In this document: positions 197 to 63,765 of the stretch, piece after piece
Layout of the letters: the number at the start of each line of letters is the position of its first letter
Position numbering within the stretch: the stretch's first letter is position 1
Virus record (IMG/VR): IMGVR_UViG_3300020413_000007
From: an uncultured virus (IMG/VR IMGVR_UViG_3300020413_000007)
Lineage: Duplodnaviria; Heunggongvirae; Uroviricota; Caudoviricetes
Reading direction: 5' to 3' (one strand)
Length of the DNA stretch: 64,000 nt
Notes under the pieces: model-generated
What the model was told of the DNA's origin: nothing
Database searches by the model: none
The model's input: only the letters and a program-made list of their open reading frames with translations
Program-made: the position numbers and the translations under genes

Positions 197-826
197 ATGC
201 CTTTATTTGAAGAATTAGATTTCAGAAATGTAAAAGTTACTGAATTTATAGTTAGACCAACTTCGATACAATACGTTAGAAATTTCGTAGAGAAGTGGCA
301 CTATTCTACAAATGTAAATGGTTTAAGAATTGCTCATGTGTTTGGATTATACTATGATGGTAATCTTATTGGTGCTATGATTTATGGTCCTCTTGCAATG
401 GCAAATACATGGAGAAAATATGGTAACTCTGAAAGTGAAGTTATTGAATTAAGAAGACTTTGTTGTATTGATAATACACCAAAATGTACTGAAAGTTATT
501 TTATTGGTAAAACAATCAGATGGCTAAAAAAGAACACTTCATATAAAACAATTGTTTCATATGCTGATGCTCATTACAATCATACAGGTGTCATTTATCG
601 TGCTACAAATTTTGAATATCATGGATTAACTTCTAAAGGTAGAGTTATTGATTACAATGGAAGGTTGTATCATGACAAATGTATCAGAACTTATTATACT
701 GATAAGTATGGTATAAAAAAATTAAAACCTTTCGCACAAAAAGTTAAAAATGCCTTGGATAATGGAGATGCAAATTACATCGATACGCCAGGCAAACATA
801 TATACGTTATGAGGTTATCAAAGTAA
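197..826 (+). CDS. Mom-like (GNAT-fold) DNA base-modification protein
   Basis: Motifs HYS, IELRRL, ESYFI, IVSYAD..HTG.IYRATNF.Y.G resemble the Mu Mom-like family. Confidence 0.75.
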   Translation: MPLFEELDFRNVKVTEFIVRPTSIQYVRNFVEKWHYSTNVNGLRIAHVFGLYYDGNLIGAMIYGPLAMANTWRKYGNSESEVIELRRLCCIDNTPKCTESYFIGKTIRWLKKNTSYKTIVSYADAHYNHTGVIYRATNFEYHGLTSKGRVIDYNGRLYHDKCIRTYYTDKYGIKKLKPFAQKVKNALDNGDANYIDTPGKHIYVMRLSK

Positions 827-830
827 CAAA

Positions 831-1040
831 ATGAGAGAGAAAATGATCAGTGCTCTCCTTGCTCATGCTCAAGGAGATATTCAGAAGCACAAAATGAATG
901 TAGAAGTTTACTTAACCAACCCTGTTGGTATTGGTGAGCATTCAAATGTTATGGAAGCAATTGAAGAAGAACTCAACATGATTGCAAAGTATGAAGATCA
1001 AGTCACAGTGATCAAAAAACATTTTATAATTAAGGATTAA
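831..1040 (+). CDS. Conserved cyanophage hypothetical protein
   Basis: ORF with NVEVYL.NPVGIGEH motif, familiar from T4-like marine phages. Confidence 0.75.
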   Translation: MREKMISALLAHAQGDIQKHKMNVEVYLTNPVGIGEHSNVMEAIEEELNMIAKYEDQVTVIKKHFIIKD

Positions 1041-1042
1041 AA

Positions 1043-1252
1043 ATGATTTTATTATCTTGTCCACCTGTATACACATTGCCTGGCACATGGACTAAATGTA
1101 ACGCCCTTATACCTCACTATACTGCTGATCCAAATGTAACCTTTGGCATTTCGATGTTAGTAATATTAGTTCTACTATCTGGGTTTGGTGTATACAGAGC
1201 ATTTTTTAACAACAAAGGTCTTACAGATCAATGGGATGAACATGATGATTAG
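1043..1252 (+). CDS. psbN: PsbN-like single-pass membrane protein
   Basis: TM helix followed by GFGVYRAF..L.DQWDEHDD, matching PsbN G.ALYTAFG..L.DPFEEH.D. Confidence 0.7.
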   Translation: MILLSCPPVYTLPGTWTKCNALIPHYTADPNVTFGISMLVILVLLSGFGVYRAFFNNKGLTDQWDEHDD

Positions 1253-1532
1253 TTTTTTATTTTCAATGGCAGGTTTATTAAATCTGTTATTTTACGTTTT
1301 TGCAATTGGTTTTGTTATCTCATTGATAATAGAACAAGTTCTTAAGTTTAGGCCTTTATCTGTTGATTCATCAATGAACGAACGAAATATGTTCATTGTT
1401 CAAACAAATAGAAGGTATTGTTGGAGACAGGCATGGGTAACTAATCTTTTTTGGTTTCTATGTAATGTTGGTTTATATGTTATCTCAAGAAATATGCAAA
1501 CACCATCAGACACATTCTGGAATGGATTATAA
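1242..1532 (+). CDS. Hypothetical membrane protein
   Basis: Two hydrophobic segments; start moved to the in-frame ATG at 1242 that overlaps the psbN stop. Confidence 0.65.
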   Translation: MMISFLFSMAGLLNLLFYVFAIGFVISLIIEQVLKFRPLSVDSSMNERNMFIVQTNRRYCWRQAWVTNLFWFLCNVGLYVISRNMQTPSDTFWNGL

Positions 1533-1584: not shown

Positions 1585-3987
1585 ATGGCCTTTACAAAGG
1601 TACAATCTGGTTTTGTAGATTTAACGACCAGTTCTGGATTATCCGTAGGAACAGGAACAATTTCTGCGCCTGCGATAAATTTTGGTACGGCAAATACAGG
1701 TTTACTCGGAGATAATGATGAAGTAGCAATATCTGTTAGTGGAGCAAGAATCTTAACTGCAAAAAGTGGAAATCTTGGCATAAACACTTCCGCTCCATCT
1801 CATAGATTAGAAGTAGCTGGAACGACAAGAACATCATTTCTTTCATTACCTTCTCCAGGCTCAGGTAATGCTGGAATTAGTATTGATAGTTTTAACGCTG
1901 GTGATATTATAAGAAGAACAACTGCAACTGGATCTGGAACCAATTTAGGTATGATTTACAGTAGTGCTGTTCCATATTTGGCACATCATATGACCGCTAA
2001 TACGGATTCTGGAACATATGCAGAATATCCATTAAGATCTTCAAGCACTTCAGCTGTCAAAAGAGGTGCTATTATCGTTGGTAATCATGGTATTGCTTTA
2101 GGAACTGGTTTAACCTATACTGGTACATTAAATGGAGCAATTCCTCATACACATTTTACATATAATTTACACAATAGTGATGGAGATTTAGTACTAAATC
2201 AACATACAACAAATGATAGTGGAAATAGAGGAATATTTTTTAGAGTGAGTTCAGAGCAAGTAATGCCATTCACTACTTATAGAAAAGGTTTAATTAATTT
2301 TAAAAGAACTACAACTAATGGTAGAGGACAATTAGATTTTCATCTCGATGCTGGAGCCGATAGTACTTCTGTAGCTGTTGGAGATACAACTTCATTAAGT
2401 TTAGCATATGATCAAAATACTGTAGGTCTTCCAACTGAATTTGGTCCCGCAGAAAAATATGGTGATGTTGATCAAGGTAATAATTCAGGACCTACTGTTG
2501 CAGCTGCCCAATTAGCAAAAGGTAGACATTATATTCAATTACAATCTAATCATAATAATAACGAAAATAATTCAAATGATCCTGCTTGGATTGCTTGGAA
2601 AGGTTCTATCTCAAGAGGTGAAGCAGGTGGAGGTCCTGCTACAACTGTTCCTTTCGGTGGATATTGTGCAAGAATTGGTGGATATCGAGATAAAGTTAAT
2701 GATGGATCAACATCAATTGGTTGGGAAACTGTACAGAATGTAGGTACATTACCTCATACTATGACTCGTCAGATGACAATGAGATATAATGGAAGAATTG
2801 CAATGGGTAATAATTTAGTACCTGATTGTCATTTTGATATGGGTTCTGTAAATACTGCAATTCGAGTTCCAAATGGAACTACTGCTCAAAGACCAAGTAC
2901 AGCTGGTACTTCTGGACAACTAAGATATAATACTGATACAACTAAATTAGAATATAGTAATGGAACTAATTGGAATAATTTGGGTGCTGTAGCTCAAATT
3001 GAAACTACAAGTGGAGATGCTACATCAACCGCTGGTGGAAAAAGAACTGTAGAATTTAGAAGTAGTGGAACATTTAATAATACTGGATCTCCTCAAGTCG
3101 CTGAAATATTTGTAATTGGTGGCGGCGGAGGAGGCGGCGGAGGCGGTGCTAACTCTGGATCTACTGGTGGTGCAGGCGGTGGAATGGCCTATGGTAGTAT
3201 TGAAATACCATCGGGATCTTTCTCAGTTACAGTTGGTTCTGGTGGAACTGGTTCAATTGCTGCTGGAGGTAATGGTGGTGATGCACCAGCTGGTGGTGCT
3301 GGTGGAACATCTTCAGTTACAATCTCTGGTGTTACATTCCAAGCAACTGGTGGAGGAGGAGGTCTTGCTACCACAACTGGAAATGGTGGTGGTTCTGGAT
3401 ATAATGTTCAAACAGGAGCTAATGGAGGCACAGGAACAATTGGTGGAGGTACAAGTTACACAAGTGTTGCTATAAGAGATGGTACTAATATTACATCTGT
3501 ATATGGTACTGGTGGTAAAGGAGGTAATTCTGGTGGTATGGATGGTTCTGGAAACGGTCCTAATGCTACAGATGGTGATAATGGAACAAATGGAGGAGCT
3601 GGTGGCGGAGGCGGCAGTGATAATTTGGCTGACGCATCAAATACGGGTCCTTCTGGAGAAGGTGGTAATGGAAATGCTACTTACTTCACTGGTGGAGGAG
3701 GTGGCGGTGGCGCTGATGGTGATGGACAAAACACTTCAAACTTAGCTCAAGGTGGTACTGGTTTACATTCTGGTGGTAATGGAGGGGATGTTGACTCTTC
3801 TGCAACTGATGGAGCAGGCCCTAGTGGTGGTTCCAGAGGTCAAGATGGAACTTCTAGAAAAAATGCTGGAGGAGGCGGAGGTTCCTTTGGTGGTGGAGGC
3901 GGTGCTGCTGCTGATGCCAATAACTCTCATCAAGGACAAGGCGGATCGGGTGGTGGCGGTCTTGTAGTTATTAGATTTTTAATATAG
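1585..3987 (+). CDS. Tail fibre/adhesin with glycine-rich C-terminal domain
   Basis: SAPAINF and GNLGINT fibre motifs, GTTAQRP..G.LRYNT linker, long GGGGG-rich C-terminus ending GG.G.VVIR. Confidence 0.8.
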   Translation: MAFTKVQSGFVDLTTSSGLSVGTGTISAPAINFGTANTGLLGDNDEVAISVSGARILTAKSGNLGINTSAPSHRLEVAGTTRTSFLSLPSPGSGNAGISIDSFNAGDIIRRTTATGSGTNLGMIYSSAVPYLAHHMTANTDSGTYAEYPLRSSSTSAVKRGAIIVGNHGIALGTGLTYTGTLNGAIPHTHFTYNLHNSDGDLVLNQHTTNDSGNRGIFFRVSSEQVMPFTTYRKGLINFKRTTTNGRGQLDFHLDAGADSTSVAVGDTTSLSLAYDQNTVGLPTEFGPAEKYGDVDQGNNSGPTVAAAQLAKGRHYIQLQSNHNNNENNSNDPAWIAWKGSISRGEAGGGPATTVPFGGYCARIGGYRDKVNDGSTSIGWETVQNVGTLPHTMTRQMTMRYNGRIAMGNNLVPDCHFDMGSVNTAIRVPNGTTAQRPSTAGTSGQLRYNTDTTKLEYSNGTNWNNLGAVAQIETTSGDATSTAGGKRTVEFRSSGTFNNTGSPQVAEIFVIGGGGGGGGGGANSGSTGGAGGGMAYGSIEIPSGSFSVTVGSGGTGSIAAGGNGGDAPAGGAGGTSSVTISGVTFQATGGGGGLATTTGNGGGSGYNVQTGANGGTGTIGGGTSYTSVAIRDGTNITSVYGTGGKGGNSGGMDGSGNGPNATDGDNGTNGGAGGGGGSDNLADASNTGPSGEGGNGNATYFTGGGGGGGADGDGQNTSNLAQGGTGLHSGGNGGDVDSSATDGAGPSGGSRGQDGTSRKNAGGGGGSFGGGGGAAADANNSHQGQGGSGGGGLVVIRFLI

Positions 3988-3998
3988 AGGTTATTAAA

Positions 3999-4325
3999 AT
4001 GCATTATTTCGCAAAAATTGATCAAAATAACACCGTAACTGAGGTAATTATTGCTGAATTTAATTTCATTGCCTCTGGATCAGTAGGAGATCATGAAGAT
4101 TGGGTTCAAACATATCCAAATGGCGGTAAAAGAGGTAACTTTGCTGGTACTGGAATGAAATATGATAAGACTAAAGATGTTTTCTATACAGAAGCACCTG
4201 ATACCACATGGACATTAGATAACAATGGTCAGTGGCAACCACCAACAGCATATCCAAGTGATGGCAAGAATTATTCGTGGAATAAATCTAGCCAGGCTTG
4301 GGAGATAAATACTTCGGAAGGGTAA
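3999..4325 (+). CDS. Small tail-fibre-associated protein
   Basis: HYFAKI..N.V..VI, RGNFAG.G..YD, W.PP..YP.DG..Y.W motifs; follows the Gly-rich fibre gene. Confidence 0.7.
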   Translation: MHYFAKIDQNNTVTEVIIAEFNFIASGSVGDHEDWVQTYPNGGKRGNFAGTGMKYDKTKDVFYTEAPDTTWTLDNNGQWQPPTAYPSDGKNYSWNKSSQAWEINTSEG

Positions 4326-4334
4326 TAGACTGAA

Positions 4335-5636
4335 ATGAGTCAAACCAAAGCACAATTAGTTAATGATGTAAGACCTAACATGGCGTTAGGAAATAATACT
4401 AGTAACGCAGTGATGAATTGTGATACTGACGTTCAGTTGCAAATTTTTAGTACTGGCCATGGTCAATTAAAAATTCAAGGAGATGCTTCAAATGTTGGTA
4501 CTGAGGATAAAGAAGCAAGATTATTACTTGCGATAGATGGATCTAATTATGAATATGCTGCAATTAGATTAGGTAATTATGGTAGTTACTGGTACTCTCC
4601 CACTGTCAATAATGATAATGCTTTAATACTCTCTTGTGGGTCGTCTGGTTCAACTCATGGTGGTATTGTTTTTGAGACAACAGCAACCGCTCCTGCTGGA
4701 TCTGCCCCTCCAGTCTGGACTGAAGCAAAACCAAGAGTTCGTATTCCTAATAGTGGAGGTTTAGAAATATATGGAGAAGTTAGTGGTACTGGTAATACTC
4801 AAGTTCATCGTACTGTAAAACTCACAGGTGTTTCTGTAAATAATGAAGAGAGTCCAGCAAATAAAACAACTGGATTATATCTTGATAGTACTTCATTTTT
4901 TAGAGTGGCAACTGGTACTGAAGCTCAAAGACCAACTAGTCCAGCTGCTGGATATATGAGATTCAATACCACAAATTCTAATCTTGAAATTCATAATGGT
5001 ACTGGATGGGCATCTGTTGGTATTGTGGCACCAACTATATCATCTATTGCAATTGCTGGTGGTTTGAGTGTATTTGTGCCAGGTGGTGGAGAAACTGTAA
5101 CTGTAACTGGTGGAAATTTTTCTTCTGTACCCTCTATAATTTTAATTGCTTCTGATGGCACTGAATTTGCTGCAACATCTGAAGCTTTTACAAATACCAC
5201 TACAATGACATTTGTAACTCCAAATGTTTCTTCTAAAGGGCCAGGTGCATATGACTTAAAACTTAATAACCCTGATGGTGGTACTGTTACAATCGGTGAT
5301 TTTATTACTGCGAGTGGCGTTCCTGTTTGGACAACTTCTGCTGGAACAATAGTTGATCAAAATGAAGGTACAACTGTGAACTTTACTCTCGCTGCTACTG
5401 ACTCTGATGGTGGTGCTATAACTTATGCTGTAACCACTGGTAGTTTACCAAGTGGACTAAGCCTAAATGCTTCTACTGGCGTAATTTCTGGAACTTTACC
5501 ACAAGTAAGTACAGATACAAATACTAACTTTACTGTAACTGCGACTGATAATGAAAGTCAAACTACAGCTCGAGCATTTACTATTACAAACAGAGACATT
5601 TATGTAATGGGTTCATCATCACTATTCAACGGTTAA
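4335..5636 (+). CDS. Tail fibre protein with IPT/TIG and Ig-like (He_PIG) domains
   Basis: GTEAQRP linker, PTISSI..TVTVTG.NF, LP.GLSLN.STGVISGT; late-promoter-like ATAAATA at 4305. Confidence 0.8.
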   Translation: MSQTKAQLVNDVRPNMALGNNTSNAVMNCDTDVQLQIFSTGHGQLKIQGDASNVGTEDKEARLLLAIDGSNYEYAAIRLGNYGSYWYSPTVNNDNALILSCGSSGSTHGGIVFETTATAPAGSAPPVWTEAKPRVRIPNSGGLEIYGEVSGTGNTQVHRTVKLTGVSVNNEESPANKTTGLYLDSTSFFRVATGTEAQRPTSPAAGYMRFNTTNSNLEIHNGTGWASVGIVAPTISSIAIAGGLSVFVPGGGETVTVTGGNFSSVPSIILIASDGTEFAATSEAFTNTTTMTFVTPNVSSKGPGAYDLKLNNPDGGTVTIGDFITASGVPVWTTSAGTIVDQNEGTTVNFTLAATDSDGGAITYAVTTGSLPSGLSLNASTGVISGTLPQVSTDTNTNFTVTATDNESQTTARAFTITNRDIYVMGSSSLFNG

Positions 5637-5640
5637 ATAA

Positions 5641-8600
5641 ATGGCAAATCTTTTATCACGACAATGCAATAACACCAGTGGTGCAAATAGAAGAAAAGCA
5701 ACGTATTCTTTTTGGATAAAAAGGCATGATCTACAATATACTACTGCTGCTCAATATTTCTTAGGACATCGAAATGCTGAGAGTTCTGTAACTACACAAA
5801 GATTTGATTTTAGATTTAGAGAAAATAAACTATGGGCAATAAGTACAACTTCTTATATTTTTACAACTGATTCAATATTTTCAGATACGACTGCATGGTT
5901 TCATTTAGTTGTTGCTATAGACCAAGATCAGTCTTCTACAAATGATAAGTATAAAGTTTATGTAAATGGAAACTTATTAAGTACTGCTAATTTTACAAAT
6001 AAAGGTTTAACTTCGGGTGATTTAGGATTTGGTGGTGCAAATGAACTGATAACTATTGGATATTCATCATGGGATGATGCTGGTAGTGGTGATGTAAACT
6101 ATAGTATTGCACAATCAATTTATGTAAATGGATTACAATTGCCTGCAACAACTTTTGGCCAGACATCTGGTGGCACTTGGACATATAAGAGACCAGTTGA
6201 TATAAGAACTGCTGTTGCAGCTGCTGGTGGATTTGGTACAAATGGGTACTTCTTAAAAATGGATCCATCTGTCGAAAGTTATGGATCAACTCATAATTTT
6301 GCTCAATATCCTTGGAAAAGAGGATATAATATGTTATGTTATAATAGAAAGTCTGATAGTTCTGCAAATGATGGTTATATCACATCTAAAATTCAACCAG
6401 AAAGTAATGATGTAAAATATTCTGGATCTGCTTTATATTGTCCGTCAGCTTTTGGTGAGGAATTAAATGGTAGTGCTGGCGGTGGAATGAATCGTTTAAA
6501 CTCTGAAACTGGTTTAATTAATGGTAGTGATCAAGGACTAACTGTTTTAGCTGCAGCAAGTTCATGGACAATCGAAGCATGGATTAAGAAATCAGATCGT
6601 AGATATAATTCTTATGATGGTGCAGGCGTTTGGTTTAATATCAACAAAGCTGATGGAACTAATCGTTTACTCTTAAGAGAAAATAATGGTATGTCTAATG
6701 GATGGGATACATATGTTCAACCTCCTACTGGAACTAGTGGAGCTATTCAAGATAGTACTCATAGTGCATATAATCATGATTGGGAACATTTTGCTTTAGT
6801 ATGGGATGGAACTAATTATAAGTATTTTCAAAATGGTAAGTATATAGGAGTTATTGCTAATAGTGATAATGCTATTGAAGATGATTCCGTTATGGCATTG
6901 TTTAATGAGAGTGATAATGCCACTGGTGGATATAATAACTCTTCTGCTGGTGTTATGATTGATAGTTTAAGAATCGTTTCTGGTCAGACACTTTATACTA
7001 CTAGTTCTACAACTGTTGGTGCTCAAATATTTACGCCTGGAGATATTACAGATCCAGCAAACTTTACTGTTAATGGTGGTTCAAGTACTGCTTCTATAAC
7101 TGGTACTGTAACTCATTTACTATCTCTACCACAATCCATGATGGGTGAGTTATTAAATGATAAAGGTACAATAGCATCAGGTATTGATGCAAATTGGAGA
7201 CCACGTTGGGTTGCAGTAAGTGAAACTGGAGATAGTTACCCTCGATTAATTGGTGATTCTAAATGGGGTAAGTCATCAATTGCATTTGGAGAAGCTTTAG
7301 AATATGCTGGCACTTATAGTGGAGGAAGTTATACTAAGACATCTGGTAAACAAGGAGTTTTAGTAGAGGATAGAGTTGGATTTGCTGGTAGTACTCAAGG
7401 TGCTCAATTTGAAAACGTATGTAATGGAGATTTTACTATCGAATTTTGGTTTAAAAGTTATATGTCTATTAGTAGTGGAGGTTATCCAAGAATTTTTGAT
7501 TTATGTGGTGGAAATAATAGAAACTCATTTCAAATTATTTGTGCAGTTGATAGTACTAATGATGCTTCATCATATAACGCTAAACGAGGCGTTCCATTTC
7601 TTTGGATGGGTGGTAGTTCTGAGTTCCCAATTGCTGGTAATACTGGATCATATAGCGCCCCTGATGCGATAGATGGTGATGGTAAATGGCATCATTATGC
7701 AATTACAAGAAGTGGTAATGATTGGTATCAATTCTTAGATGGAAATTTATTTAAACATAATAATAATCCAAGTATATCGAGTGCTGCAACAACATCCTTA
7801 AATGTGAGAGCAAATTACCCAACAACTATAGGTTGCACTACCACTAGTATCAGTACTGCATTTACAGATACCGCCTTTCAGGCAGCAAACTTCCAAGGAG
7901 CAATTGATCAATTTAGATGTGTAAACAATCAATGTTTATATACTTCTAACTTTACGCCTGGCAACATAGGTTCTAAAACAACTTATACTACAACTGGATC
8001 AAACTCACTTAACATTACAGGTCAAGTTGTATCTTTATTAGATCCTGATGTTGAAGTTGTTGGAACTGATATGTCTACAAGTGACACAGTATCAAATAAT
8101 GGTTTTAATGATTATAATTTCTTGCCTGGTAATGCTACAAGTAAAGATATTCCAGACAATAATTTCTGTCAACTAAGTGCGGTTGGAGCTTCTGAGCAAA
8201 CAGGTCAAGTATATAGTATACTTAGTCATGCAAGTGGATTCTCAGGAGGATGGCCAAATAGTAGTAAATGTTCTGCGGTTGGTAATATTGGTGTTACCAA
8301 AGGAAAATGGTATTTTGAAGTGATTGATGGACAAAATAATATTGGAGATTGGGTAGGAGCTAGTGGCGGCCTTGGCATAGGTTGGGCAACAACTGATTTC
8401 CGAAAAGTAGGATCATTAGATATCGGATTTGAACAGAGTTGGAATCCTTATAGTGCTTCTGTTGGAGCTAGAATTGGATTTGATGGTACTAATGATAGAT
8501 TTGCTGCAAATAATCAACAATTTGATACACCTACAAACACAGGTATAGCTATTCTTTCTAAAAATGATAGTTTAACTCAAGATCCTCAATCAGGAAGAAA

Positions 8601-10014
8601 TTCAAACAAGATATGTTCTTTAAAATCAGATACCCAGAATGTAAAAGTAATGGGATTAGCGTATGATTTTGATAATGGACAGGTTACATATTATGTAAAT
8701 GGTCATCAAACTTTTCAAAGAAGCGATAGTTCGATTGGTAGATCAAATCAAATGTGGGCTCCATGTATTCAAATGGAAACTGGAAGCAGTTCTCACGATC
8801 ATGTACAATATAATTTTGGTGGATCTTCTCATCAAGTCAATCGAGATGCTAACTATTGTGATGAGAATGGTTATGGTAAGTTCATGTATAAACCACCTAC
8901 AGGATATCTTGCTTTATGTGATAAAAACTGGCAAACAGTTCATACACCACCTATTGCAGATGGATCTACTAAATTTAGTGCCCTTACATGGACTGGAAAT
9001 GGCGGAACTGGTAGATCATTTACTGGACTTGGATTTAAACCAGCACTATTAATTTGGAAAAAACGTACTGGAACTTCTGGTGCAAATGTTTGGTCTGATC
9101 GTTTAAGAGGAACTAGTGGAAATTCATATGAATCTGTAAGAAGTAATAATACAAATGCGGCAAATGATTCAAATTATATTGCATCATTTGATAATGATGG
9201 ATTTACTCAGGATACGAATACCACTATTAACGAAAATGGTGTACCTCTAATAGCTTGGTGTTGGAGAGCTGATGAAACATTTACTCCGACTGGAACTGGT
9301 ATTACATCTGCTTCTGGTCTTCGAGATACAGATGCTGGTTTTTCTATCTTAAGATGGACTGGATCTTCAAATAGTGGTGGTAACATTACTCATGGATTAA
9401 GTAAACAGCCAGAATTTGTAATTACAAAAAGATTAGATGATACATGGAATTGGGATATCTATCATGAAATGATAGGATATGATGGAACTCCAACTAGCAC
9501 TGCAAATACTTTGATATTTACGACTGCTACACCTCGAAGTGTATCTTATCCAGCTCCTGATTCAACAAATATAAATCTTTTGCATAATTTTACCAATGCA
9601 AATTCTGCTGAGATGATTGCATACTGTTGGCACTCAGTTCCAGGCTATTCTTCTTTTGGTCGATATCTATCTAATGCTGGTGATGGTACTATTGGAAGTG
9701 GAAATGAGCCATCAGATTTTATATATCTAGGATTCAAACCAGCTTTTGTATTAATAAAGGCTATCGGTGCTGCCAATGATTGGAGTATTCGAGATAAATT
9801 TAGAAGTCCTCAAAATCCTAGACAAAAAGTTCTTCGTTGGAATGCTGAAGCAAGTAGTCAAGCTGAGCAAGATGATGCTGGATATGCTATTGATTTTCTT
9901 TCAACTGGATTTAAAATTCGTACTAACGGTTCTGAACAACATAATCCTAATAATTTATTCATCTATGCAGCATTCGCTGATACACCATCACATCTTGCGA
10001 AAGCAACTAATTAA
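5641..10014 (+). CDS. Large virion protein with LamG/ConA-like and SPRY-like domains
   Basis: Three LamG-like units (T.S.WIK..W.H), GKWYFE SPRY-like segment, GFKP..W.K tail. Confidence 0.8.
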   Translation: MANLLSRQCNNTSGANRRKATYSFWIKRHDLQYTTAAQYFLGHRNAESSVTTQRFDFRFRENKLWAISTTSYIFTTDSIFSDTTAWFHLVVAIDQDQSSTNDKYKVYVNGNLLSTANFTNKGLTSGDLGFGGANELITIGYSSWDDAGSGDVNYSIAQSIYVNGLQLPATTFGQTSGGTWTYKRPVDIRTAVAAAGGFGTNGYFLKMDPSVESYGSTHNFAQYPWKRGYNMLCYNRKSDSSANDGYITSKIQPESNDVKYSGSALYCPSAFGEELNGSAGGGMNRLNSETGLINGSDQGLTVLAAASSWTIEAWIKKSDRRYNSYDGAGVWFNINKADGTNRLLLRENNGMSNGWDTYVQPPTGTSGAIQDSTHSAYNHDWEHFALVWDGTNYKYFQNGKYIGVIANSDNAIEDDSVMALFNESDNATGGYNNSSAGVMIDSLRIVSGQTLYTTSSTTVGAQIFTPGDITDPANFTVNGGSSTASITGTVTHLLSLPQSMMGELLNDKGTIASGIDANWRPRWVAVSETGDSYPRLIGDSKWGKSSIAFGEALEYAGTYSGGSYTKTSGKQGVLVEDRVGFAGSTQGAQFENVCNGDFTIEFWFKSYMSISSGGYPRIFDLCGGNNRNSFQIICAVDSTNDASSYNAKRGVPFLWMGGSSEFPIAGNTGSYSAPDAIDGDGKWHHYAITRSGNDWYQFLDGNLFKHNNNPSISSAATTSLNVRANYPTTIGCTTTSISTAFTDTAFQAANFQGAIDQFRCVNNQCLYTSNFTPGNIGSKTTYTTTGSNSLNITGQVVSLLDPDVEVVGTDMSTSDTVSNNGFNDYNFLPGNATSKDIPDNNFCQLSAVGASEQTGQVYSILSHASGFSGGWPNSSKCSAVGNIGVTKGKWYFEVIDGQNNIGDWVGASGGLGIGWATTDFRKVGSLDIGFEQSWNPYSASVGARIGFDGTNDRFAANNQQFDTPTNTGIAILSKNDSLTQDPQSGRNSNKICSLKSDTQNVKVMGLAYDFDNGQVTYYVNGHQTFQRSDSSIGRSNQMWAPCIQMETGSSSHDHVQYNFGGSSHQVNRDANYCDENGYGKFMYKPPTGYLALCDKNWQTVHTPPIADGSTKFSALTWTGNGGTGRSFTGLGFKPALLIWKKRTGTSGANVWSDRLRGTSGNSYESVRSNNTNAANDSNYIASFDNDGFTQDTNTTINENGVPLIAWCWRADETFTPTGTGITSASGLRDTDAGFSILRWTGSSNSGGNITHGLSKQPEFVITKRLDDTWNWDIYHEMIGYDGTPTSTANTLIFTTATPRSVSYPAPDSTNINLLHNFTNANSAEMIAYCWHSVPGYSSFGRYLSNAGDGTIGSGNEPSDFIYLGFKPAFVLIKAIGAANDWSIRDKFRSPQNPRQKVLRWNAEASSQAEQDDAGYAIDFLSTGFKIRTNGSEQHNPNNLFIYAAFADTPSHLAKATN

Positions 10015-10046
10015 AACCACTAAATAGTAAAAAAGTCTGACCTCTC

Positions 10047-16248: not shown

Positions 16249-16249
16249 C

Positions 16250-55364: not shown

Positions 55365-55370
55365 ATACAG

Positions 55371-55378
55371 TATAAATA
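55371..55378 (+). promoter_or_regulatory. T4-type late promoter
   Basis: TATAAATA upstream of gp8. Confidence 0.75.
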
Positions 55379-55410
55379 AAGATAAAGTTAAAAAACATCG
55401 GAACAGATAA

Positions 55411-56979
55411 ATGCCATCACTAGTTTCTGACAATTTCAGAGTATTTGCTGCAGAGCAGTTTATGGAGGCTCTTGAGGAACCTCTAGATTCTTCTGGCAAC
55501 CCTCTTTCCGACTCTTCCACGGAGGCGTTGAGAGACAGAAGTAAAGTTTATATTTTTATTGGTCGTTCACAAACTTGGAATGCTGAGAGATACTCAGGTC
55601 TAGGTTTTAACGACATTGATACTATACCTTCACCAACGGATTCATTTGATGAGTTGAGTGAAATTTATGACGATATGATCGCTATGAAGAGAATTACTCG
55701 TAGTGATGTCAATCAAGTTGTAAGAAAAAGAACTTGGAAGACAAATACTCGTTATGATATGTACAAACATAATTATTCTACTGGTTATCAGTCAGCGACT
55801 GGAGCTAATAAATTATATGATTCACAATTCTATGTGATGAATAGTAATTACGATGTTTATAAGTGTATCTATAATGGTGAAACTCCTGCTAATCCAAATG
55901 GAGTAATTTCTACTGTAGAACCAACAGGAACAGCAACTTCTATTTTTACTACATCTGATACTTACAGATGGAAGTATATGTATACATTAGGTATTAACGA
56001 TTTTGTTAAGTTTGTTTCTAGTGATTTTATGCCACTTAAAACTGATTCTAACGTTGTTAGTGCTGCTACATCAGGAGCAATTGATCAACCTTTAGTAAGA
56101 AACGTTGGAAGTGGTTTAACTCCAGGCACATATTTCTGTCCAGTTATAGGTGATTATAGTACACTTGCAGTAGTTACATTTACAGTATCAAGCACTGCTC
56201 CGATTGCAAACCAAATTGATCCAAGCACAGTATCAATGTCTGTTGTTGGTGCTGGATATACTTATGGTACTATTAACCTTGCAGAATGTTATTCAACTTT
56301 AGCTGCTGCACAAGCAAGATCTGCTTCACCAACTGATCTTTCTACTGGTAGTGCTTCTATTGATGCTATAATCTCACCTCCAGATGGACATGGTTCTAAT
56401 GTTGTGAGAGAACTTGGTGGTTACAGAGTAATGGTTAATAAAGCTGTTGAGTTCTTGGATGGTGCTGGTGACGTACCAACTGATATGCAATTTAGAAGAT
56501 TTGGTCTTGTTTCTGATCCACAAACTCCAGGCAACACTGATTTAACATCAAGTACTGCTGCGGTATGTAAAGCAATTAAATTTCCTGCTGCATCATCTGT
56601 CAACTACACTATTGGTGAAGTAATTACTCAAGCAACTACTGGTGCAAAAGGTAAGGTAATTCATTGGGATTCTGTTAACAAAGTTCTTAGATATTTCCAA
56701 AATGAATATACTGCTGCAACTCAATTAACTACTAATCAATACAAGTTAGTAGAGTTTAGTGGTGCAAATGCGATTACTGGAGGATTATCTAGTACTGCAT
56801 TAACTCCTGATACAGCTGCTAGTGGTACTACAACTGTTGCTGGTAGATCATTTACTACTGGTTACTCTAGTTCAGAGGTTAAAAAATTTAGTGGTTCTAT
56901 TCTGTACATAGAGAACAGAAAAACAATCATTAGATCTGATGACCAAATTGAAGACATTAAACTCGTTATTGAGTTCTGA
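55411..56979 (+). CDS. gp8: Baseplate wedge subunit
   Basis: YDMY, VYKCIYN, Y.WKYMY, SP..GHG, YIENR..I.R..DQ.EDIK...EF. Confidence 0.92.
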   Translation: MPSLVSDNFRVFAAEQFMEALEEPLDSSGNPLSDSSTEALRDRSKVYIFIGRSQTWNAERYSGLGFNDIDTIPSPTDSFDELSEIYDDMIAMKRITRSDVNQVVRKRTWKTNTRYDMYKHNYSTGYQSATGANKLYDSQFYVMNSNYDVYKCIYNGETPANPNGVISTVEPTGTATSIFTTSDTYRWKYMYTLGINDFVKFVSSDFMPLKTDSNVVSAATSGAIDQPLVRNVGSGLTPGTYFCPVIGDYSTLAVVTFTVSSTAPIANQIDPSTVSMSVVGAGYTYGTINLAECYSTLAAAQARSASPTDLSTGSASIDAIISPPDGHGSNVVRELGGYRVMVNKAVEFLDGAGDVPTDMQFRRFGLVSDPQTPGNTDLTSSTAAVCKAIKFPAASSVNYTIGEVITQATTGAKGKVIHWDSVNKVLRYFQNEYTAATQLTTNQYKLVEFSGANAITGGLSSTALTPDTAASGTTTVAGRSFTTGYSSSEVKKFSGSILYIENRKTIIRSDDQIEDIKLVIEF

Positions 56980-57015
56980 TTATACTAATAAATACTTAAA
57001 AGAAGTCCTTCGACA

Positions 57016-60000
57016 ATGCAAAAGACCAATCTACAACTGGCGCCATACTTTGATGATTTTGATAGTTCCAAAAACTATCAAAAGATTCTATTTAAACCTG
57101 GCTATCCAGTGCAGGCGAGAGAACTTACTCAACTGCAAACACAGTTACAGAACCAAATAGAGAAATTTGGAAATCATACATTTAAAGATGGTTCTGTAGT
57201 AATACCAGGCCAGATTGGTTACGATCTGCAATATGATGCTGTTTTAGTTCAGAATTTAATTGGTGGTGTAGAAGTAGAAGCAACAAGAACAAGTTTAGTA
57301 GGTAAAACTTTAAAAGGATCAACTACTGGTGTAGAGGCAGAAGTTGTAAATACAATATCAGTTACAACAAGTGAAAAAAATGCGATTACATTATATGTAA
57401 AATATACAAAGAGTGGTTCTAGTACAGCTGGTATCCAATCAACTAAATTTGGTAATAATGAGACTTTAATTGATACATCAACTAATCTTAATGTTGCTCA
57501 AACATATCTTTTAAATGCTACTGAATATACTGGAAGTATAGCATACATTACAAATGGCATCTACTATATTCGTGGATTTTTTGTAGAAGTTATAGATCAA
57601 AATATTATACTTAATCAATATAGTAACAAACCAACATATAAGATTGGTCTAACAGTTACAGAAGAAAAAATAACAAGTGATGAAGATAGTACATTATTCG
57701 ATAATGCAAATGGATATTCTAATTTTGCTGCTCCAGGCGCTGATAGATTAAAAATTACTGCATCATTATCAAAAGAGTTGACTAGTTTTTCTGATAATGG
57801 TAATTTTATAGAATTATTAAGATTAAAAGATGGTATTTTAGAAAGAATTGTTGAGACTAGTTTATACAGTGAATTAGAAAAAAATCTTGCTAGAAGAACA
57901 TATGATGAATCTGGTGATTATACAGTCAGAGATTTTACTGTTAAGGTAAAAGAAGCTCTTGATAATGGAGATAATGGTGGTATCTATAATCCTAATGAAG
58001 TTCTTGCAGATGGTAGAAGTATTTTAGCAAGAGATCCATTAGAAACAGATCCAACAAATTCTTTTAATGGTAATAATTATTATGCTTTAGAAGTATCTTC
58101 TGGAAAAGCATATGTAAGAGGTTTTGAGATTGATAATGTTGCTAAAAAATATGTATTAGCTGAAAAAACAAGAGTAACATCTGCTTCAAATAATAAAACT
58201 ACAAATACAAGTTTTGGATCATATTTTACAATATCTTCTGCCGTACAAACTGTTACTGCTGGTCAGACTCTTTCTTTAAGAAATAGTAGTAATGCTGTTA
58301 TTGGTAATGCTCGTGCTGTAGGTGTAGTTCCTGCTAGTACTGGTCATTTATTATATGTTGAGGAAGCATTTACATTTACAGATGTTGTAGTTACAGGTGA
58401 TGCTACTGCATTACAATCTGGTGATTTTATATTTTCTTCTAGAGGATCTAGAGGTGTAGTTGTATCTACAACTCTTTCTAGTGGTAATACAACACTTAGA
58501 TTACGTCAAGTTGTTGGTAGATTTGTAAATAATGATGTTATAAACAATAGTAGAGATTCAATTACGTTTACAATTTCTAGTCTTACTGATTTTAAATTTA
58601 CAGATGTTAATAATATAATCAATGGTCTTGGATATGTTGCAACTGTAACTTCAAATACTGGTCTTAAAACAAAAGGTAAAAATAGTTTTATTAAAATATC
58701 AGATTTACCAGTAGCAACAATTAGTGATTATTCATACACAAAATTAGCAAGAGTAACTCTTACTGTTCAAAGTGGAGCAGTATCAATTACTGCACCAAAT
58801 AATTTTACTCCTTTAACAACTGGATACTATATCACTTCAGCTACTGGAGATCATACAGCAACTGCAACTCTTACTGGAAATACTTTAGTATTATCGTCTA
58901 TTAGTGGAAATCCTACTAATGGAACTAGTGTAACAATTTGGTATAAATTAAGAGTTAATAATGTTTCTGTTAGAACTAAGAAAAATAAAACATTCCAATA
59001 CTTATCAGTCACAAAGAAAAAATCATCAACTGATGTAGTCTATGGTAATAGGTATGATGATAAAGAAATTAATTTAAGATTTCCAGACGTTTATAAAATA
59101 CATGCTATTCATGAGGCAGCTGTAAATGGTGTAACTGATACAAATATGTTTGATCGTTTAATTATAAATGATTCAAGTGAGGTTGAAACTGGTGATATTA
59201 TTCAAAGTGGTTCTTTAAGAGCAAAAATTATATTTAAGAATGGTGTAAATCTTCATGTAAAATATTTACAGAATCAAAAATTTACACAAGGAACAAATTT
59301 AACTACACAAATTACTATTGTCAATAATCCTACTTTAGTCGGAAGATTTTTAACTGAAGTTACACATGGTAACTATATCGATATTACAGATAATTATGCT
59401 TTAGTTAAAAATGATGTAGAAGATAATTATAGAATTTCTAAATTATCTAGATTAGGTAATAGATCAACACCATCACAAAAAATTACTATTGTATTTGATT
59501 ATTTTGAACATGGAAATACTACAAATGATTTTTATGCTACAAGTTCATTTAATACTGATGATGATGGAGATATAGAATATACAAATATTCCATATGCATA
59601 TGATGGAACTCCTTATACTGATATCTTAGATTTCAGAGGAACCTATACACCAACAACTGCTTCTGGTAGTGGTACTGTAACTGCCCCATATGTTACTAGT
59701 AATGGAAAATCAGCATTTGATATTTACGAACAAACCAAGAGTGCTGCTATAACAGCATATCCAGATGAGTTTGCTACATATGATTTAAGTTACTATACTG
59801 CAAGAATTGATAGATTATATCTTAATAAAGAAGGTAAGTTTGTAATATCACAAGGATCACCAGCAATCAATCCAGTAATACCTGAGTCTGTTTCAGATTC
59901 TTTATTAATCAATACTATTTCTATACCAGCATATCTTAGAGATGTAAATCAAATTTCTATACAGAAAGAAGATACTAGAAGATATACTATGAAAGATATT

Positions 60001-63000
60001 GGTGCTATTGAATCTAGAGTGGATAGTATTGAATACTATACAACTTTAAGTTTACTTGAAACTGATACTAACAATATGATGATTCTTGATAGTAGTGGAA
60101 ATAATAGATTTAAAAATGGATTCTTAGTTGATAACTTTAAATCTCTTAATTTTACAGAATCTAAAAATCCAGATTTCAATATGTCCATTGATACCACACA
60201 AGGTTTGATGAGACCATATCCATATGTTAATAACATAGGTTTCAAGTGGCTTGAAACTATGGATGGTACTGCAACAAAAGTAGGTGGGTTACAAAAGACT
60301 GGTGATTTCTTATCTTTACCATATAAAGAAGAACAATTTGCTTCTAATCCATATGCAAGTAAGGTAGTTAATTTAAATCCATTTAATGTGTTTACATGGG
60401 TAGGAGATTTTAAAATATCACCAGAAAGAGATGTATGGTTTGATACAAAAAGATCTGCTCCTGAGAATGTACCTCAAGTAGATCTTACAGGACCTATTAA
60501 ATTCCTTTATGATAGGAGTGGTGCTGATGGTGAGAAATGGGGTAGTTGGAATAATACTGGTAGTGAAAGAGTAAGTGGTGGTACTGAATTTACTGATAAA
60601 AGAACTGGTGTAGAAAACAGTTTTAGTACTGTCACACAGAATATTGAAGTTGGTGATAGAATTGATGGTATTAAAAATATTGAGTTTGCTAGATCAATTG
60701 TAATTGATGCAAAGTCATCAAGAATGAAACCAAATACAAATTTATATTTCTTTATTGATGGTGAAGATTATAATGATAGTGTATATCCTAAAATCTTTAG
60801 AAATATTACTAGAACTGTAAATAGTACTTCTTTTGTAGTTGGTGAGAAAGTTAGAATTGAATCACAATCTGATCCAGGCACTAATCAAATTATTGCAGAA
60901 GTAGTTGTTGCATCTAAATATGATTCTACTATAACTGCTAATTATAGTGGTGCATCTACTGTAATCGCAATTGATAATGTAACCACTGTAGATGGTACAT
61001 TATTAAATCCATCAAGTCCTACAGACAAAGTTAAAATAACAGGACTTACAACTGGTGCTGTTGCAGAAGTGGACTTAACTTCTCCTAGAATTTCTACTAA
61101 CGATGAAGGAACTGTAGACTTCTTTATTTTAGTTCCTCCAGAAAAATTAGAAACTGGTAAGTCAAGATTAGTAATAACAGATGAAAGCACATCTACAACT
61201 GTAGAAGGTGTATCTGATACTAATGCAGTTGCTAATTATGATTCAGAAGGAACTTTATTTGAACTAACAAGTTTAAGTATAGATATGCAGATTCCTCAAA
61301 TTACTGTAACACCTATTGAGGAAACAAGACAAAGATTTATACCTGATCCTCCTCCACCTCCACCTAGAAACTGTGACCCATTAGCACAATCATTCTTTGT
61401 TGATGCTATTGAAGGTGGAATGTTTATTACATCTATAGATTTATATTTCCAATCTAAGGATACAAAAGTTCCTGTAACAATTGATATTCGTACTGTAGAA
61501 AATGGATCACCAACACAGACAATTCTTCCATTTAGTGTAAAAACAATTGAAGCTGCTAATGTATCTGTAAATGCAACTAAAGCAAATACAGTAACTAAGT
61601 TTACATTTGATGCTCCAGTATATGTAGCAAATGGTCAAGAATACGCATTTATTTTAAGATCTAGATCTTTAAATTATAAAGTTTGGGTATCTAGATTAAA
61701 TCAAGTTGATGTAGATACTAGTCAATTAATTGACAAACAACCATATGCAGGGTCATTATACAAATCTCAAAACATGAGTGTCTGGGAACCAGATCAGTTT
61801 GAAGATATCAAGTTCAATATTAATAGAGCTAAGTTTACAACCAATAGTAAATTAACTGCTCAATTAACAAATGGTATTGTTCCTAGAGTAGATCTTCCAA
61901 CAGATCCATTGATTTTTACATCTGATTCAACTGATATTACTATATTACATCCAAATCATTGTATGCATACAAAACAAAATTTTGTAAATATATCTGGTGT
62001 AAAATCAGATGTACCAAATACTAAACTGGTAACTCCATTAGGAAATGCACAGTTTATAGTTGATACAGCTATTACATTAGCAGATGGTACATTCACACCC
62101 ACCCAGTTTAATAATACAACAGTAGGAGATAATAATTTTGGATACATCAAAATTAATGATGAAATTATTGCTTACAAATCAGTAAGTGGTTCTACAATTA
62201 CAGTTCCTAGTGGTGGTAGAGGTGTTGGTGATACAGTTATTGTTTCACATGCTACAAATTCTGTAGTTGAATACTATAGTATTAATGGTATACCTTTAAC
62301 AGAAATTAATAAAGTACATTCATTAAAAGATGTAATTAGTATGGATAAATATCAAATTTCTGTTAATTCAAAAGCAAATGAAACAAAACAATCAGGTGCT
62401 AGATACATTAAGGCAAGTAGAAACTTACAGTTTGAAAGTATTACACCTAGATTAAATGAAATTATATTTTCTGGTACAGAATTAACTACAAGATTAGGTA
62501 CAACTTCTGGTTCTTCAGTAAGTGAAAAGAATACAGGAACTTTCTCAACATTACAAGATGTAAGTCTTGCTAATTTAGAAGTGAATGAATTGGATGCATC
62601 CAGTGTTATTCTTTCACCAGAAAACCAAACAGTATACTTTGGTTCTACTGATTCATTTAAATTTTATGCTGATATGAAGAGTACAGTTGATAACTTAAGT
62701 CCGATGTTTAATCTTTCTGGATCATCTGTTATTACTGCAATGAATCGTATCAATAGAATTGATAAAACAGATGGAACTGTAGATCTTACTTCTGAACTTA
62801 ATTCAGAGGGATCATTACATGATTCTGTTTATGTAACTAAAAAAGTAACTCTAGAAAACTCTTCTACTTCTATCAAAATTTTATTTGATGCAATTAGAAG
62901 ACAGGGTGTTGATATTAAAGTATTTGCTAAAGTGAAAAGAGATGATGAGACAGATGATTTCAACTTATTAGATTACGTTGAAATACCTTCTACAAATTAT

Positions 63001-63159
63001 CCATTCTCACCAGACAAAGAAACATATCGGGCATTTGAATATGAAATTACTGGTTTAGTAGGTTTCAAAGAATATGCTATTAAGGTTGTTATGATTGGTA
63101 ACGATCAATCTAATGTGCCTAAAATAAGAAACTTTAGAGGAATTGCCCTCGCAGTATAA
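57016..63159 (+). CDS. Large virion structural protein (DUF4815/VrlC-like)
   Basis: PYFDDF..LFKPG.PVQARELTQLQ, APGADRLKI, ARRTYDESGDY, RFKNGF.VDNF, DPLAQSF. Confidence 0.85.
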   Translation: MQKTNLQLAPYFDDFDSSKNYQKILFKPGYPVQARELTQLQTQLQNQIEKFGNHTFKDGSVVIPGQIGYDLQYDAVLVQNLIGGVEVEATRTSLVGKTLKGSTTGVEAEVVNTISVTTSEKNAITLYVKYTKSGSSTAGIQSTKFGNNETLIDTSTNLNVAQTYLLNATEYTGSIAYITNGIYYIRGFFVEVIDQNIILNQYSNKPTYKIGLTVTEEKITSDEDSTLFDNANGYSNFAAPGADRLKITASLSKELTSFSDNGNFIELLRLKDGILERIVETSLYSELEKNLARRTYDESGDYTVRDFTVKVKEALDNGDNGGIYNPNEVLADGRSILARDPLETDPTNSFNGNNYYALEVSSGKAYVRGFEIDNVAKKYVLAEKTRVTSASNNKTTNTSFGSYFTISSAVQTVTAGQTLSLRNSSNAVIGNARAVGVVPASTGHLLYVEEAFTFTDVVVTGDATALQSGDFIFSSRGSRGVVVSTTLSSGNTTLRLRQVVGRFVNNDVINNSRDSITFTISSLTDFKFTDVNNIINGLGYVATVTSNTGLKTKGKNSFIKISDLPVATISDYSYTKLARVTLTVQSGAVSITAPNNFTPLTTGYYITSATGDHTATATLTGNTLVLSSISGNPTNGTSVTIWYKLRVNNVSVRTKKNKTFQYLSVTKKKSSTDVVYGNRYDDKEINLRFPDVYKIHAIHEAAVNGVTDTNMFDRLIINDSSEVETGDIIQSGSLRAKIIFKNGVNLHVKYLQNQKFTQGTNLTTQITIVNNPTLVGRFLTEVTHGNYIDITDNYALVKNDVEDNYRISKLSRLGNRSTPSQKITIVFDYFEHGNTTNDFYATSSFNTDDDGDIEYTNIPYAYDGTPYTDILDFRGTYTPTTASGSGTVTAPYVTSNGKSAFDIYEQTKSAAITAYPDEFATYDLSYYTARIDRLYLNKEGKFVISQGSPAINPVIPESVSDSLLINTISIPAYLRDVNQISIQKEDTRRYTMKDIGAIESRVDSIEYYTTLSLLETDTNNMMILDSSGNNRFKNGFLVDNFKSLNFTESKNPDFNMSIDTTQGLMRPYPYVNNIGFKWLETMDGTATKVGGLQKTGDFLSLPYKEEQFASNPYASKVVNLNPFNVFTWVGDFKISPERDVWFDTKRSAPENVPQVDLTGPIKFLYDRSGADGEKWGSWNNTGSERVSGGTEFTDKRTGVENSFSTVTQNIEVGDRIDGIKNIEFARSIVIDAKSSRMKPNTNLYFFIDGEDYNDSVYPKIFRNITRTVNSTSFVVGEKVRIESQSDPGTNQIIAEVVVASKYDSTITANYSGASTVIAIDNVTTVDGTLLNPSSPTDKVKITGLTTGAVAEVDLTSPRISTNDEGTVDFFILVPPEKLETGKSRLVITDESTSTTVEGVSDTNAVANYDSEGTLFELTSLSIDMQIPQITVTPIEETRQRFIPDPPPPPPRNCDPLAQSFFVDAIEGGMFITSIDLYFQSKDTKVPVTIDIRTVENGSPTQTILPFSVKTIEAANVSVNATKANTVTKFTFDAPVYVANGQEYAFILRSRSLNYKVWVSRLNQVDVDTSQLIDKQPYAGSLYKSQNMSVWEPDQFEDIKFNINRAKFTTNSKLTAQLTNGIVPRVDLPTDPLIFTSDSTDITILHPNHCMHTKQNFVNISGVKSDVPNTKLVTPLGNAQFIVDTAITLADGTFTPTQFNNTTVGDNNFGYIKINDEIIAYKSVSGSTITVPSGGRGVGDTVIVSHATNSVVEYYSINGIPLTEINKVHSLKDVISMDKYQISVNSKANETKQSGARYIKASRNLQFESITPRLNEIIFSGTELTTRLGTTSGSSVSEKNTGTFSTLQDVSLANLEVNELDASSVILSPENQTVYFGSTDSFKFYADMKSTVDNLSPMFNLSGSSVITAMNRINRIDKTDGTVDLTSELNSEGSLHDSVYVTKKVTLENSSTSIKILFDAIRRQGVDIKVFAKVKRDDETDDFNLLDYVEIPSTNYPFSPDKETYRAFEYEITGLVGFKEYAIKVVMIGNDQSNVPKIRNFRGIALAV

Positions 63160-63161
63160 TC

Positions 63162-63383
63162 ATGGAAAATCCAGAAGTTGAAGGCCATCCAGATCTCGCA
63201 AGGGATTCTGGATCTGGTGCTATAGTTAATAGAAATCCATATAGTTATGAACAGTATATGGAAAGTTATAAGAAAAGAATTGAGAAAGAAGATAGAATAG
63301 ATAATATAGAAAAAAACTTAATTGAAACTAGGAAAGAAATAGATACTATTAAGGATCTTATTTTACGGCATATAATGTCATAA
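63162..63383 (+). CDS. Conserved hypothetical protein
   Basis: VEGH.DL.RD..SGAI.N plus a coiled coil. Confidence 0.8.
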   Translation: MENPEVEGHPDLARDSGSGAIVNRNPYSYEQYMESYKKRIEKEDRIDNIEKNLIETRKEIDTIKDLILRHIMS

Positions 63384-63435
63384 ATAGTGATGGGAAACAA
63401 ATCTCCTATAAATATAGTATAAGTGGTAGACCCTA

Positions 63436-63765
63436 ATGGCAGCAGTTCATAATTTACACATTGATCAAGGTGCTGACTTTACTGTCGAAGTTGGTATATA
63501 TGATGATAATAATGCGGCTTGGGACCTTACTGGTTATGCAGTAGCTGCCAAGATTCAAAAATCGTATTATAGTACATCATCAACAAGTTTTGTTGCAACT
63601 GTGAGTTCTACCGCATCTGGAACAGTAGTTCTAACCCTTCTCGACACTGTTACTGCAGCCATGGATCCTGGCAGGTATCTGTATGACGTAGTTGTTACGT
63701 CAGCTGGTGGTATAAAAACACGAGTCATAGAAGGAATTGTTACAATCAACCCTGGCATAACATGA
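63436..63765 (+). CDS. Small virion structural protein
   Basis: NL.IDQGADF..DLTGY..GRY.YDV...RV.EG.V...PG.T; TATAAATA at 63407. Confidence 0.8.
   Translation: MAAVHNLHIDQGADFTVEVGIYDDNNAAWDLTGYAVAAKIQKSYYSTSSTSFVATVSSTASGTVVLTLLDTVTAAMDPGRYLYDVVVTSAGGIKTRVIEGIVTINPGIT

Follow-up and report, generated by a model that had tools for sequence, protein, structure and literature searches.

Flank-conditional avoidance of CCWGG and other palindromes in an uncultured ocean cyanomyovirus suggests a protective modification in the context 5'-GCY-3'

We report that in a stretch of 64,000 nucleotides (the window) from an uncultured Caudoviricetes virus (IMG/VR record IMGVR_UViG_3300020413_000007) the palindrome CCWGG (W, A or T) is present only where it is preceded by G or followed by C. 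The window covers the structural region of a T4-like cyanomyovirus. Its gene set, our own longest-open reading frame (ORF) calls, comprises 57 ORFs with 95% of the sequence coding, and all large ORFs are carried on the + strand. Among these are the baseplate genes gp6 and gp8, a gene for a Mom-family protein, and two giant structural ORFs, one at 41031-55364 encoding 4777 amino acids (aa; YHYH domain, residues 1612-1717), and one at 57016-63159 encoding a 2047-aa DUF4815 (VrlC-like) protein. Bases 1-146 resemble the end of psbD (translation reading and an 87% tblastn match), the closest named relatives of gp6 are cyanomyoviruses at approximately 36% protein identity, and plastocyanin and ferredoxin genes are present in same-clade relatives. 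No near-identical phage record was found for the window.

An original prediction for this DNA stated that every CCWGG has G before or C after it. This holds for 38 of 38 sites, and the ten positions with which it was illustrated are all in the exhaustive list. The flank pairs are T..C (15), G..C (8), A..C (6), G..T (4), G..A (2), C..C (2) and G..G (1).

788..63755, no strand assigned: 38 CCWGG, all GCCWGG or CCWGGC (exhaustive count with flanks, both null models); first bases 788, 1079, 1855, 4292, 5079, 5241, 7036, 7957, 8125, 9640, 12860, 14458, 16000, 16709, 32311, 32828, 33228, 34349, 34880, 37481, 37729, 39469, 40591, 43362, 47055, 48243, 48300, 51645, 52263, 53922, 56122, 56527, 57097, 57205, 57733, 60874, 63667 and 63751

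In 100 dinucleotide-preserving shuffles the unflanked form HCCWGGD (H, any base but G; D, any base but C) was expected 29.7 +/- 5.1 times; the original prediction had named this form as the one whose abundance would remove the pattern, and its count in the window is 0. A codon-preserving comparison, also proposed there, was made with 300 synonymous-codon shuffles in which every protein and the per-gene codon counts were preserved. These gave on average 10.0 flanked and 32.8 unflanked CCWGG, and the observed absence of unflanked copies was matched by 0/300 shuffles; CCSGG (S, C or G) is absent from the window and CCGG occurs once. The flank rule is confirmed as real, and chance is a very unlikely explanation for it.

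The avoidance is written in synonymous codons. Thirty-three of the 38 sites are in-frame Pro-Gly pairs, two are in frame 2 and three lie outside the ORF calls. All 33 Pro-Gly pairs of the window read CCW-GGN, with CCC or CCG used by none. GGC is the glycine codon in 27 of these pairs, compared with 140/1727 Gly codons overall (8%), and the remaining six pairs are preceded by a G-ending codon, in keeping with the earlier claim that Pro-Gly is spelled in one of these two ways. Pro-Gly reads CCNGG, and choosing C or G for N creates CCGG, which is likewise avoided (1 vs approximately 22-32 expected); as CCWGG and CCGG cannot both be removed at Pro-Gly, the adaptation falls on the flank. Moreover, the two C-preceded sites both end in C, as noted previously, and the sole G-followed site has G before it, and therefore avoidance of HCCWGGD fits these data whereas avoidance of WCCWGGW does not.

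The flank rule is not CCWGG-specific, and the following sites were also found in the window (R, A or G; Y, C or T; N, any base):

6551..63658, no strand assigned: 13 CTGCAG, all with G before or C after; 6551, 10498, 10948, 11311, 17870, 18467, 33765, 49435, 50947, 51535, 53635, 55448 and 63653
4457..63664, no strand assigned: four CCATGG, all flanked; first bases 4457, 29688, 32859 and 63659
21659..21662, no strand assigned: the sole CCGG of the window, context GCCGGT
5569..23164, no strand assigned: two CYCGRG, both flanked; 5569 (G-CTCGAG-C) and 23159 (C-CCCGAG-C)
13470..32783, no strand assigned: two CCTNAGG; 13470 (A-CCTCAGG-C, flanked) and 32777 (A-CCTGAGG-G, unflanked)
1666..57740, no strand assigned: 20 GCGC, each with R before or Y after; 1666, 3710, 7655, 10093, 10114, 12864, 22816, 27474, 30402, 30867, 31589, 31650, 33585, 35397, 37478, 38240, 39473, 50953, 57040 and 57737

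CTGCAG is present in 13 flanked and 0 unflanked copies vs codon-shuffle means of 13.6 and 13.2 (HCTGCAGD, 0 vs 7.2 +/- 2.7 expected in shuffles), and CCATGG in 4 and 0 copies vs 2.5 and 3.9, with 1/300 shuffles as low in unflanked copies. For CCGG the figures are 1 and 0 vs 9.4 and 22.7, the single copy being GCCGG as predicted. CGCG is missing, flanked or not, vs means of 4.4 and 12.2, and GGTACC (0), TTCGAA (0), CGCG (0) and CCGG (1) compare with expectations of 7 to 22. The control sites CAGCTG, CATATG, CAATTG, CTTAAG and CTATAG showed no flank effect in codon shuffles of the window. The copy of CCTNAGG at 32777 is the only unflanked one in the window among sites that otherwise obey the rule.

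Among 405 loci the trait is bimodal. Members of the window clade have no violations at CCWGG (G002, 26 sites; G003, 17; G004, 27; G007, 22; G008, 36; G009, 20; G010, 20; L574, 13; and L157-L168 throughout). The sister contig G011 (84% identity at the gp20 N-terminus) breaks the rule with 52/61 CCWGG unflanked, and in a 14-kb alignment of G011 and G008 (75% identity) 12 of 12 unflanked G011 sites match flanked G008 sites. The rule recurs in unrelated cyanomyoviruses, i.e. G005 (55 kb; 48/0, the second figure being unflanked sites), G013 (91/2), G012 (230.7 kb, 99% complete; 208 sites with the flank and 7 without) and S-SSM7, a cultured Synechococcus phage (196/10). In G012 a G-ending codon before Pro dominates, with 148 G-left sites. 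In the phylogeny of a conserved 447-aa protein, carriers of the trait cluster and are polyphyletic, which requires at least three origins or losses; the trait is present in at least three cyanomyovirus lineages including S-SSM7.

When all 4-6 bp palindromes were scanned without bias in the four symmetric flank classes, the top hits in three independent genomes (G012, G013 and the window clade) were CCWGG, CTGCAG and CCATGG with the G../..C flank. We also pooled 43 rule loci (584 kb, redundant) and 269 non-rule loci; these were classed by CCWGG and only the other sites are independent tests. Flanked and unflanked copies in rule vs non-rule loci were 624/9 vs 913/3339 for CCWGG, 90/3 vs 497/796 for CTGCAG, 46/0 vs 87/183 for CCATGG, 25/0 vs 52/90 for CYCGRG, 34/1 vs 72/180 for CCTNAGG and 6/0 vs 468/744 for CCGG. 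The CTGCAG rule accompanies the CCWGG rule: among 101 non-rule loci with at least six CTGCAG, none was without an unflanked copy.

The contexts of the surviving sites define what the flank supplies. At 484 one-sided rescued CCWGG any base is accepted at -2 (A 104, C 148, G 62, T 170), rescued sites start with CC or CT, and the base after the flank-made GC appears to matter. GCGC with neither R before nor Y after accounts for 0/189 copies in rule genomes vs 14/150 in a non-rule genome, a difference to which a general absence of TGCGCA and CGCG partly contributes. In S-SSM7, CAATTG is absent although approximately 34 G-flanked copies were expected, and palindromes with internal GCA or GCG (ATGCAT, GTGCAC, TGCGCA) are absent. 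Counted over the whole S-SSM7 genome, CAATTG and ATGCAT are each found 0 times vs approximately 52 expected. Strong avoidance affects none of the palindromes with an internal GCY in four data sets from rule genomes (0/8, 0/4, 0/11 and 0/10), the corresponding figures for non-rescuable palindromes being 7/42, 5/40, 9/46 and 7/45; the palindromes are shared and the four sets are not independent. In the non-rule genome G018, 3/9 internal-GCY palindromes are avoided, and rule loci have CAGCTG (internal GCT) at 2.5 times its frequency in non-rule loci. The simplest common denominator seems to be protection of the C, or of the paired G, in 5'-GCY-3'. Since the rule reaches beyond CCWGG, sites unable to gain GCY (CGCG, GGTACC, TTCGAA, GTGCAC) are absent and no internal-GCY palindrome is avoided, an enzyme specific for HCCWGGD drops out and modification at 5'-GCY-3' is favoured.

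A possible second rescue context was seen in one lineage, that of S-SSM7, G012 and G013; the window has no unflanked CCWGG. In these three, 18/19 unflanked CCWGG and 3/3 unflanked CCATGG overlap GGWCC, with the first C of the rescued site as the fourth base of GGWCC. HGW at the same position rescues none, yet among unflanked sites of the non-rule G018 HGW (53) outnumbers GGW (22). Moreover, GGGCC/GGCCC is found 0 times in S-SSM7 vs 23 expected, while GGWCC is at its expected level. In the scan of G012 and G013, ACGT was enriched for the A../..T flank in G012 (324/407 vs 227 expected), and GGWCC likewise (114/134 vs 73).

The reading we favour, at a probability of roughly 0.6, is restriction-driven avoidance combined with a protective modification at GCY. 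The phage would be under selection by several host type II restriction enzymes, with CCWGG, CTGCAG, CCATGG, CYCGRG, CCTNAGG, CCGG, CGCG, GGYRCC and TTCGAA as probable targets. Most target sites would have been purged through synonymous codon choice, and sites at Pro-Gly would be retained only where a flanking G (or C, for the other strand) sets the first cytosine in 5'-GCY-3'. This cytosine, or the paired guanine, would carry a post-replicative modification on phage DNA, and a single modified strand would suffice to block cleavage. What we infer from the avoidance and its contexts is threefold: selection comes from restriction enzymes, protection is by covalent modification, and the phage is in control of it. 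Of the explanation offered in the original prediction, the part that a GpC/GCC context protects stands and is widened to GCY across CTGCAG, CCATGG, CYCGRG, CCTNAGG, CCGG and GCGC; the part that the modification is made by the phage did not gain support.

Several observations weigh against a protective GCY modification directed by the phage. Flanked CCGG is still approximately nine-fold depleted in the window (1 vs 9.4), and protection is therefore not universal. CACGTG has 12 flanked and 0 unflanked copies in rule loci even though G-CA does not make a GCY; these loci are redundant, and in non-rule loci, too, 60% of CACGTG copies have the flank. C-to-T change at GCY is not elevated (9/216 vs 127/2242 at HCY), in a comparison that is underpowered and bears only on plain 5-methylcytosine. 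Finally, searches for the modifying enzyme were negative. Six-frame searches with PF00145, PF01555, PF02086 and PF05869 gave no match in window-clade contigs, G005 and G012, nor in S-SSM7 (where PF02086 was not run). A Pfam scan of 148 G012 ORFs (120-700 aa, E <= 1e-5; ten boundary-spanning ORFs left out) gave no methyltransferase, TGT or Tet_JBP/TET. A scan for catalytic motifs revealed no methyltransferase common to trait-bearing genomes, N4/N6-type genes being present only in the non-rule G018.

Other results of this search are in line with these. The original prediction had pointed to the rest of the genome as the place to look for C5 or N4 cytosine methyltransferases; we found no C5 or N4/N6 methyltransferase in approximately 120 kb of the window clade, with approximately 60 kb of the genome unseen, and none in two complete trait-bearing genomes. 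Contig walking via gp6, Mom, gp15, gp20 and the conserved 447-aa protein, over viral and metagenome contigs, added approximately 55 kb to the window, including genes for neck, terminase, capsid, uvsY/W, gp46/47, clamp loader, regA, purM, talC and gp43, and no methyltransferase was seen among the genes gained. In 16 trait-related records, G012 and S-SSM7 among them, PF00145 had no match; as a control, a C5 methyltransferase was detected in the complete non-rule phage G017 (E 1.9e-88). The non-rule cyanophage group to which G017 belongs (with L015-L027) has 40-55 GGCC per approximately 20 kb at 36% GC. In S-SSM7 the motif scan identified one PF05175-like ORF, which the other trait-bearing genomes lack. 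Oxygenases and glycosyltransferases in trait-bearing genomes are generic 2-oxoglutarate-Fe(II) (2OG-Fe(II)) oxygenases and glycosyltransferases only, and the 2OG-Fe(II) families in the G012 scan are limited to the generic PF13759 and PF13640. Only four small ORFs of 62-100 aa, shared with the window, are common to trait-bearing genomes and absent in non-rule DNA. In the trait-bearing G005 an S-adenosylmethionine lyase family protein is encoded (L155:4239-4766; PF23780, E 3.1e-16), which may represent a separate anti-restriction function.

Without a phage-encoded enzyme the mark could have been placed by methyltransferases of the previous host, at GCY and in S-SSM7 also at GGWCC, the phage keeping only those sites that are covered. 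The two complete trait-bearing genomes without a canonical methyltransferase speak for this, as does GGWCC, a classic methyltransferase specificity, and the polyphyly of the trait on the tree of the conserved protein is what a shared host range would also predict. However, flanked CTGCAG is at neutral frequency and unflanked CTGCAG at zero, a combination that calls for protection at nearly all times. Of the 301 picocyanobacterial family genomes in which methyltransferase genes were taken as a proxy for restriction-modification systems, only 37 have PF00145 and 56 have PF01555, and five named genomes lack PF00145; a universal host methyltransferase was looked for with both families in the 301 genomes, and with PF00145 in the five named ones, and none was found. 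Moreover, neither avoidance nor a flank rule is seen in the podovirus Syn5 (CCWGG 104/115), which shares its laboratory host with S-SSM7 (host Synechococcus WH8109). We consider marking by the previous host unlikely.

It is also quite improbable that there is no modification and that the nucleases themselves fail after a preceding G, through a shared flank requirement or as one multi-specific nuclease. The lack of a recognisable modifying enzyme and the constant company of the CCWGG and CTGCAG flank rules, as a single agent predicts, are in accordance with this. It would, however, demand that at least five unrelated sequences share one requirement at -1, that GCGC follow another rule (R../..Y) and that G-CAATTG and G-CGCG go without rescue, and it leaves unexplained that internal-GCY palindromes are never avoided and that CAGCTG is commoner in rule loci.

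The alternative put forward originally, a single host defence enzyme of degenerate specificity (HCCWGGD), would account for the absence of this heptamer from the window. It is highly improbable, since the flank rule is common to five or more recognition sequences that are unrelated (it holds also for CTGCAG, CCATGG, CYCGRG, CCTNAGG and CCGG), and since S-SSM7 and its relatives tolerate unflanked CCWGG where it overlaps GGWCC (18/19), which a fixed 7-bp specificity does not predict. An origin unrelated to defence, i.e. a Pro-GGC codon-pair preference or a mutational bias, is very hard to maintain even though 33/38 CCWGG are Pro-Gly codon pairs, since the five sites outside the Pro-Gly frame obey the rule too, sites in different coding contexts share it, the G-ending codon before Pro that dominates in G012 acts at the opposite end of the site, and CCW-GGW is in free use in the sister lineage (84% protein identity).

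With respect to the enzyme behind a GCY modification, the only recognisable DNA-modification gene of the window is that of the Mom-family protein:

197..826, + strand: Mom-family protein, 209 aa; PF25680, E 3.8e-35; PHROG 1384; Mu Mom structure 8BV8, E 7.7e-8

The gene is present in every trait-bearing genome examined. That the rule might co-occur with it, as had been suggested, was not borne out in the converse direction: approximately 60 of 66 Mom-bearing contigs break the CCWGG rule, the Mom-bearing G019, G030 and G020 avoid internal-GCY palindromes, and the GCY signature is missing from two Mom-positive genomes. In the window, sites with a right-hand C only have A or T as W in 16 and 7 cases, and those with a left-hand G only in 3 and 4; the rule is symmetric in the orientation of W, and an adenine mark therefore cannot explain it. 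We thus rejected the Mom-like gene as a sufficient cause. The DUF4338/DruA-like protein of these phages has a GNAT fold, for which Mu Mom is the longest structural match with a Z score tied with ordinary GNATs, and it does not track the trait. One possibility is that a Mom-family or DUF4338/DruA-like GNAT-fold protein acts on cytosine or guanine and thereby places the mark. More generally, we regard it as conceivable, if rather doubtful, that GCY, and in one lineage also GGWCC, is marked by an enzyme that belongs to none of the known C5 and N4/N6 methyltransferase families in abundant ocean cyanomyoviruses including S-SSM7.

Further observations concern Mom-bearing phages and the window clade. 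In G020 (L435-L444), a complete 190-kb Mom-bearing phage genome, GATC is found 0 times vs 588 expected, GGCC, GCGC, CCGG, CGCG, CTGCAG and CAGCTG are all missing, and there are only 7 CCNGG and 11 GGNCC; its proteome can therefore contain no more than 7 Pro-Gly and 11 Gly-Pro dipeptides, i.e. avoidance extends to the amino-acid level, and there is no flank rescue. CATG is strongly depleted in G019 (141 vs 609 expected) and G030 (39 vs 422). In the window clade, past the end of G008, L574:12363-13160 (- strand) encodes a 266-aa class II aminoacyl-tRNA-synthetase-like ORF (PF00152, E 3.3e-12) that lies close to purM, talC and gp43 and was not found in G012; it deserves mention because Mu Mom uses charged tRNA.

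Should the GCY reading be correct, sequence by itself predicts a modification motif, the restriction specificities of the hosts and the protected sites for globally abundant viruses, and the prediction is directly testable in that the cultured S-SSM7 shows the same pattern. If the chemical mark is present, the missing methyltransferase genes in complete trait-bearing genomes would indicate an unknown modifying enzyme, and flank-conditional avoidance would constitute a general route to hidden DNA modifications in uncultured viruses. If that enzyme moreover falls outside known families, it would represent a new class of sequence-specific DNA-modifying enzyme found through codon choice.

As in the restriction-site avoidance known from virulent dsDNA phages, short palindromes are removed here by synonymous codons and their counts are far below codon or composition expectation; unlike in these, for some sites one flanking base decides, and flanked copies are neutral or enriched. 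Literature searches, shallow in depth, revealed no description of flank-conditional avoidance and none of DNA modification in S-SSM7. Phage Mu Mom carries out a tRNA-Gly-dependent carbamoylmethylation of adenine in SAS, a broad anti-restriction modification (PMC13219725). A Mom-family GNAT gene is likewise present in the window and in the trait-bearing genomes, but the rule described here has a symmetry in W that an adenine mark cannot give, the SAS-containing GTCGAC, GACGTC and GTGCAC are avoided outright, and most Mom-bearing contigs break the rule.

Phages are known in which a GpC[C/T]-specific C5-methyltransferase is coupled with TET dioxygenases and with glycosyltransferases (Burke et al. 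2021, PMC8256090). The surviving sites suggest the same context here, GC with C or T behind it and any base in front, and in both cases it is viewed as protection of phage DNA; unlike in those systems, the PF00145 methyltransferase and Tet_JBP were not found in our trait-bearing genomes. Finally, SMRT sequencing of marine Myoviridae-like viral genomes identified the N4-methylcytosine (m4C) motifs RGCY, CCWGG and GGWCC (Hiraoka et al. 2022, PMC8919816; cyanophages are not mentioned in its main text). RGCY was considered as the protective context and rejected, since the base before GCY is not limited to R in our 484 sites, and the N4/N6 methyltransferase family PF01555 was not found in the trait-bearing phages searched. 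These genomes are nevertheless marine and myovirus-like, as is the window, and (R)GCY matches the rescue context, and GGWCC the possible second one, that we arrived at from sequence alone.

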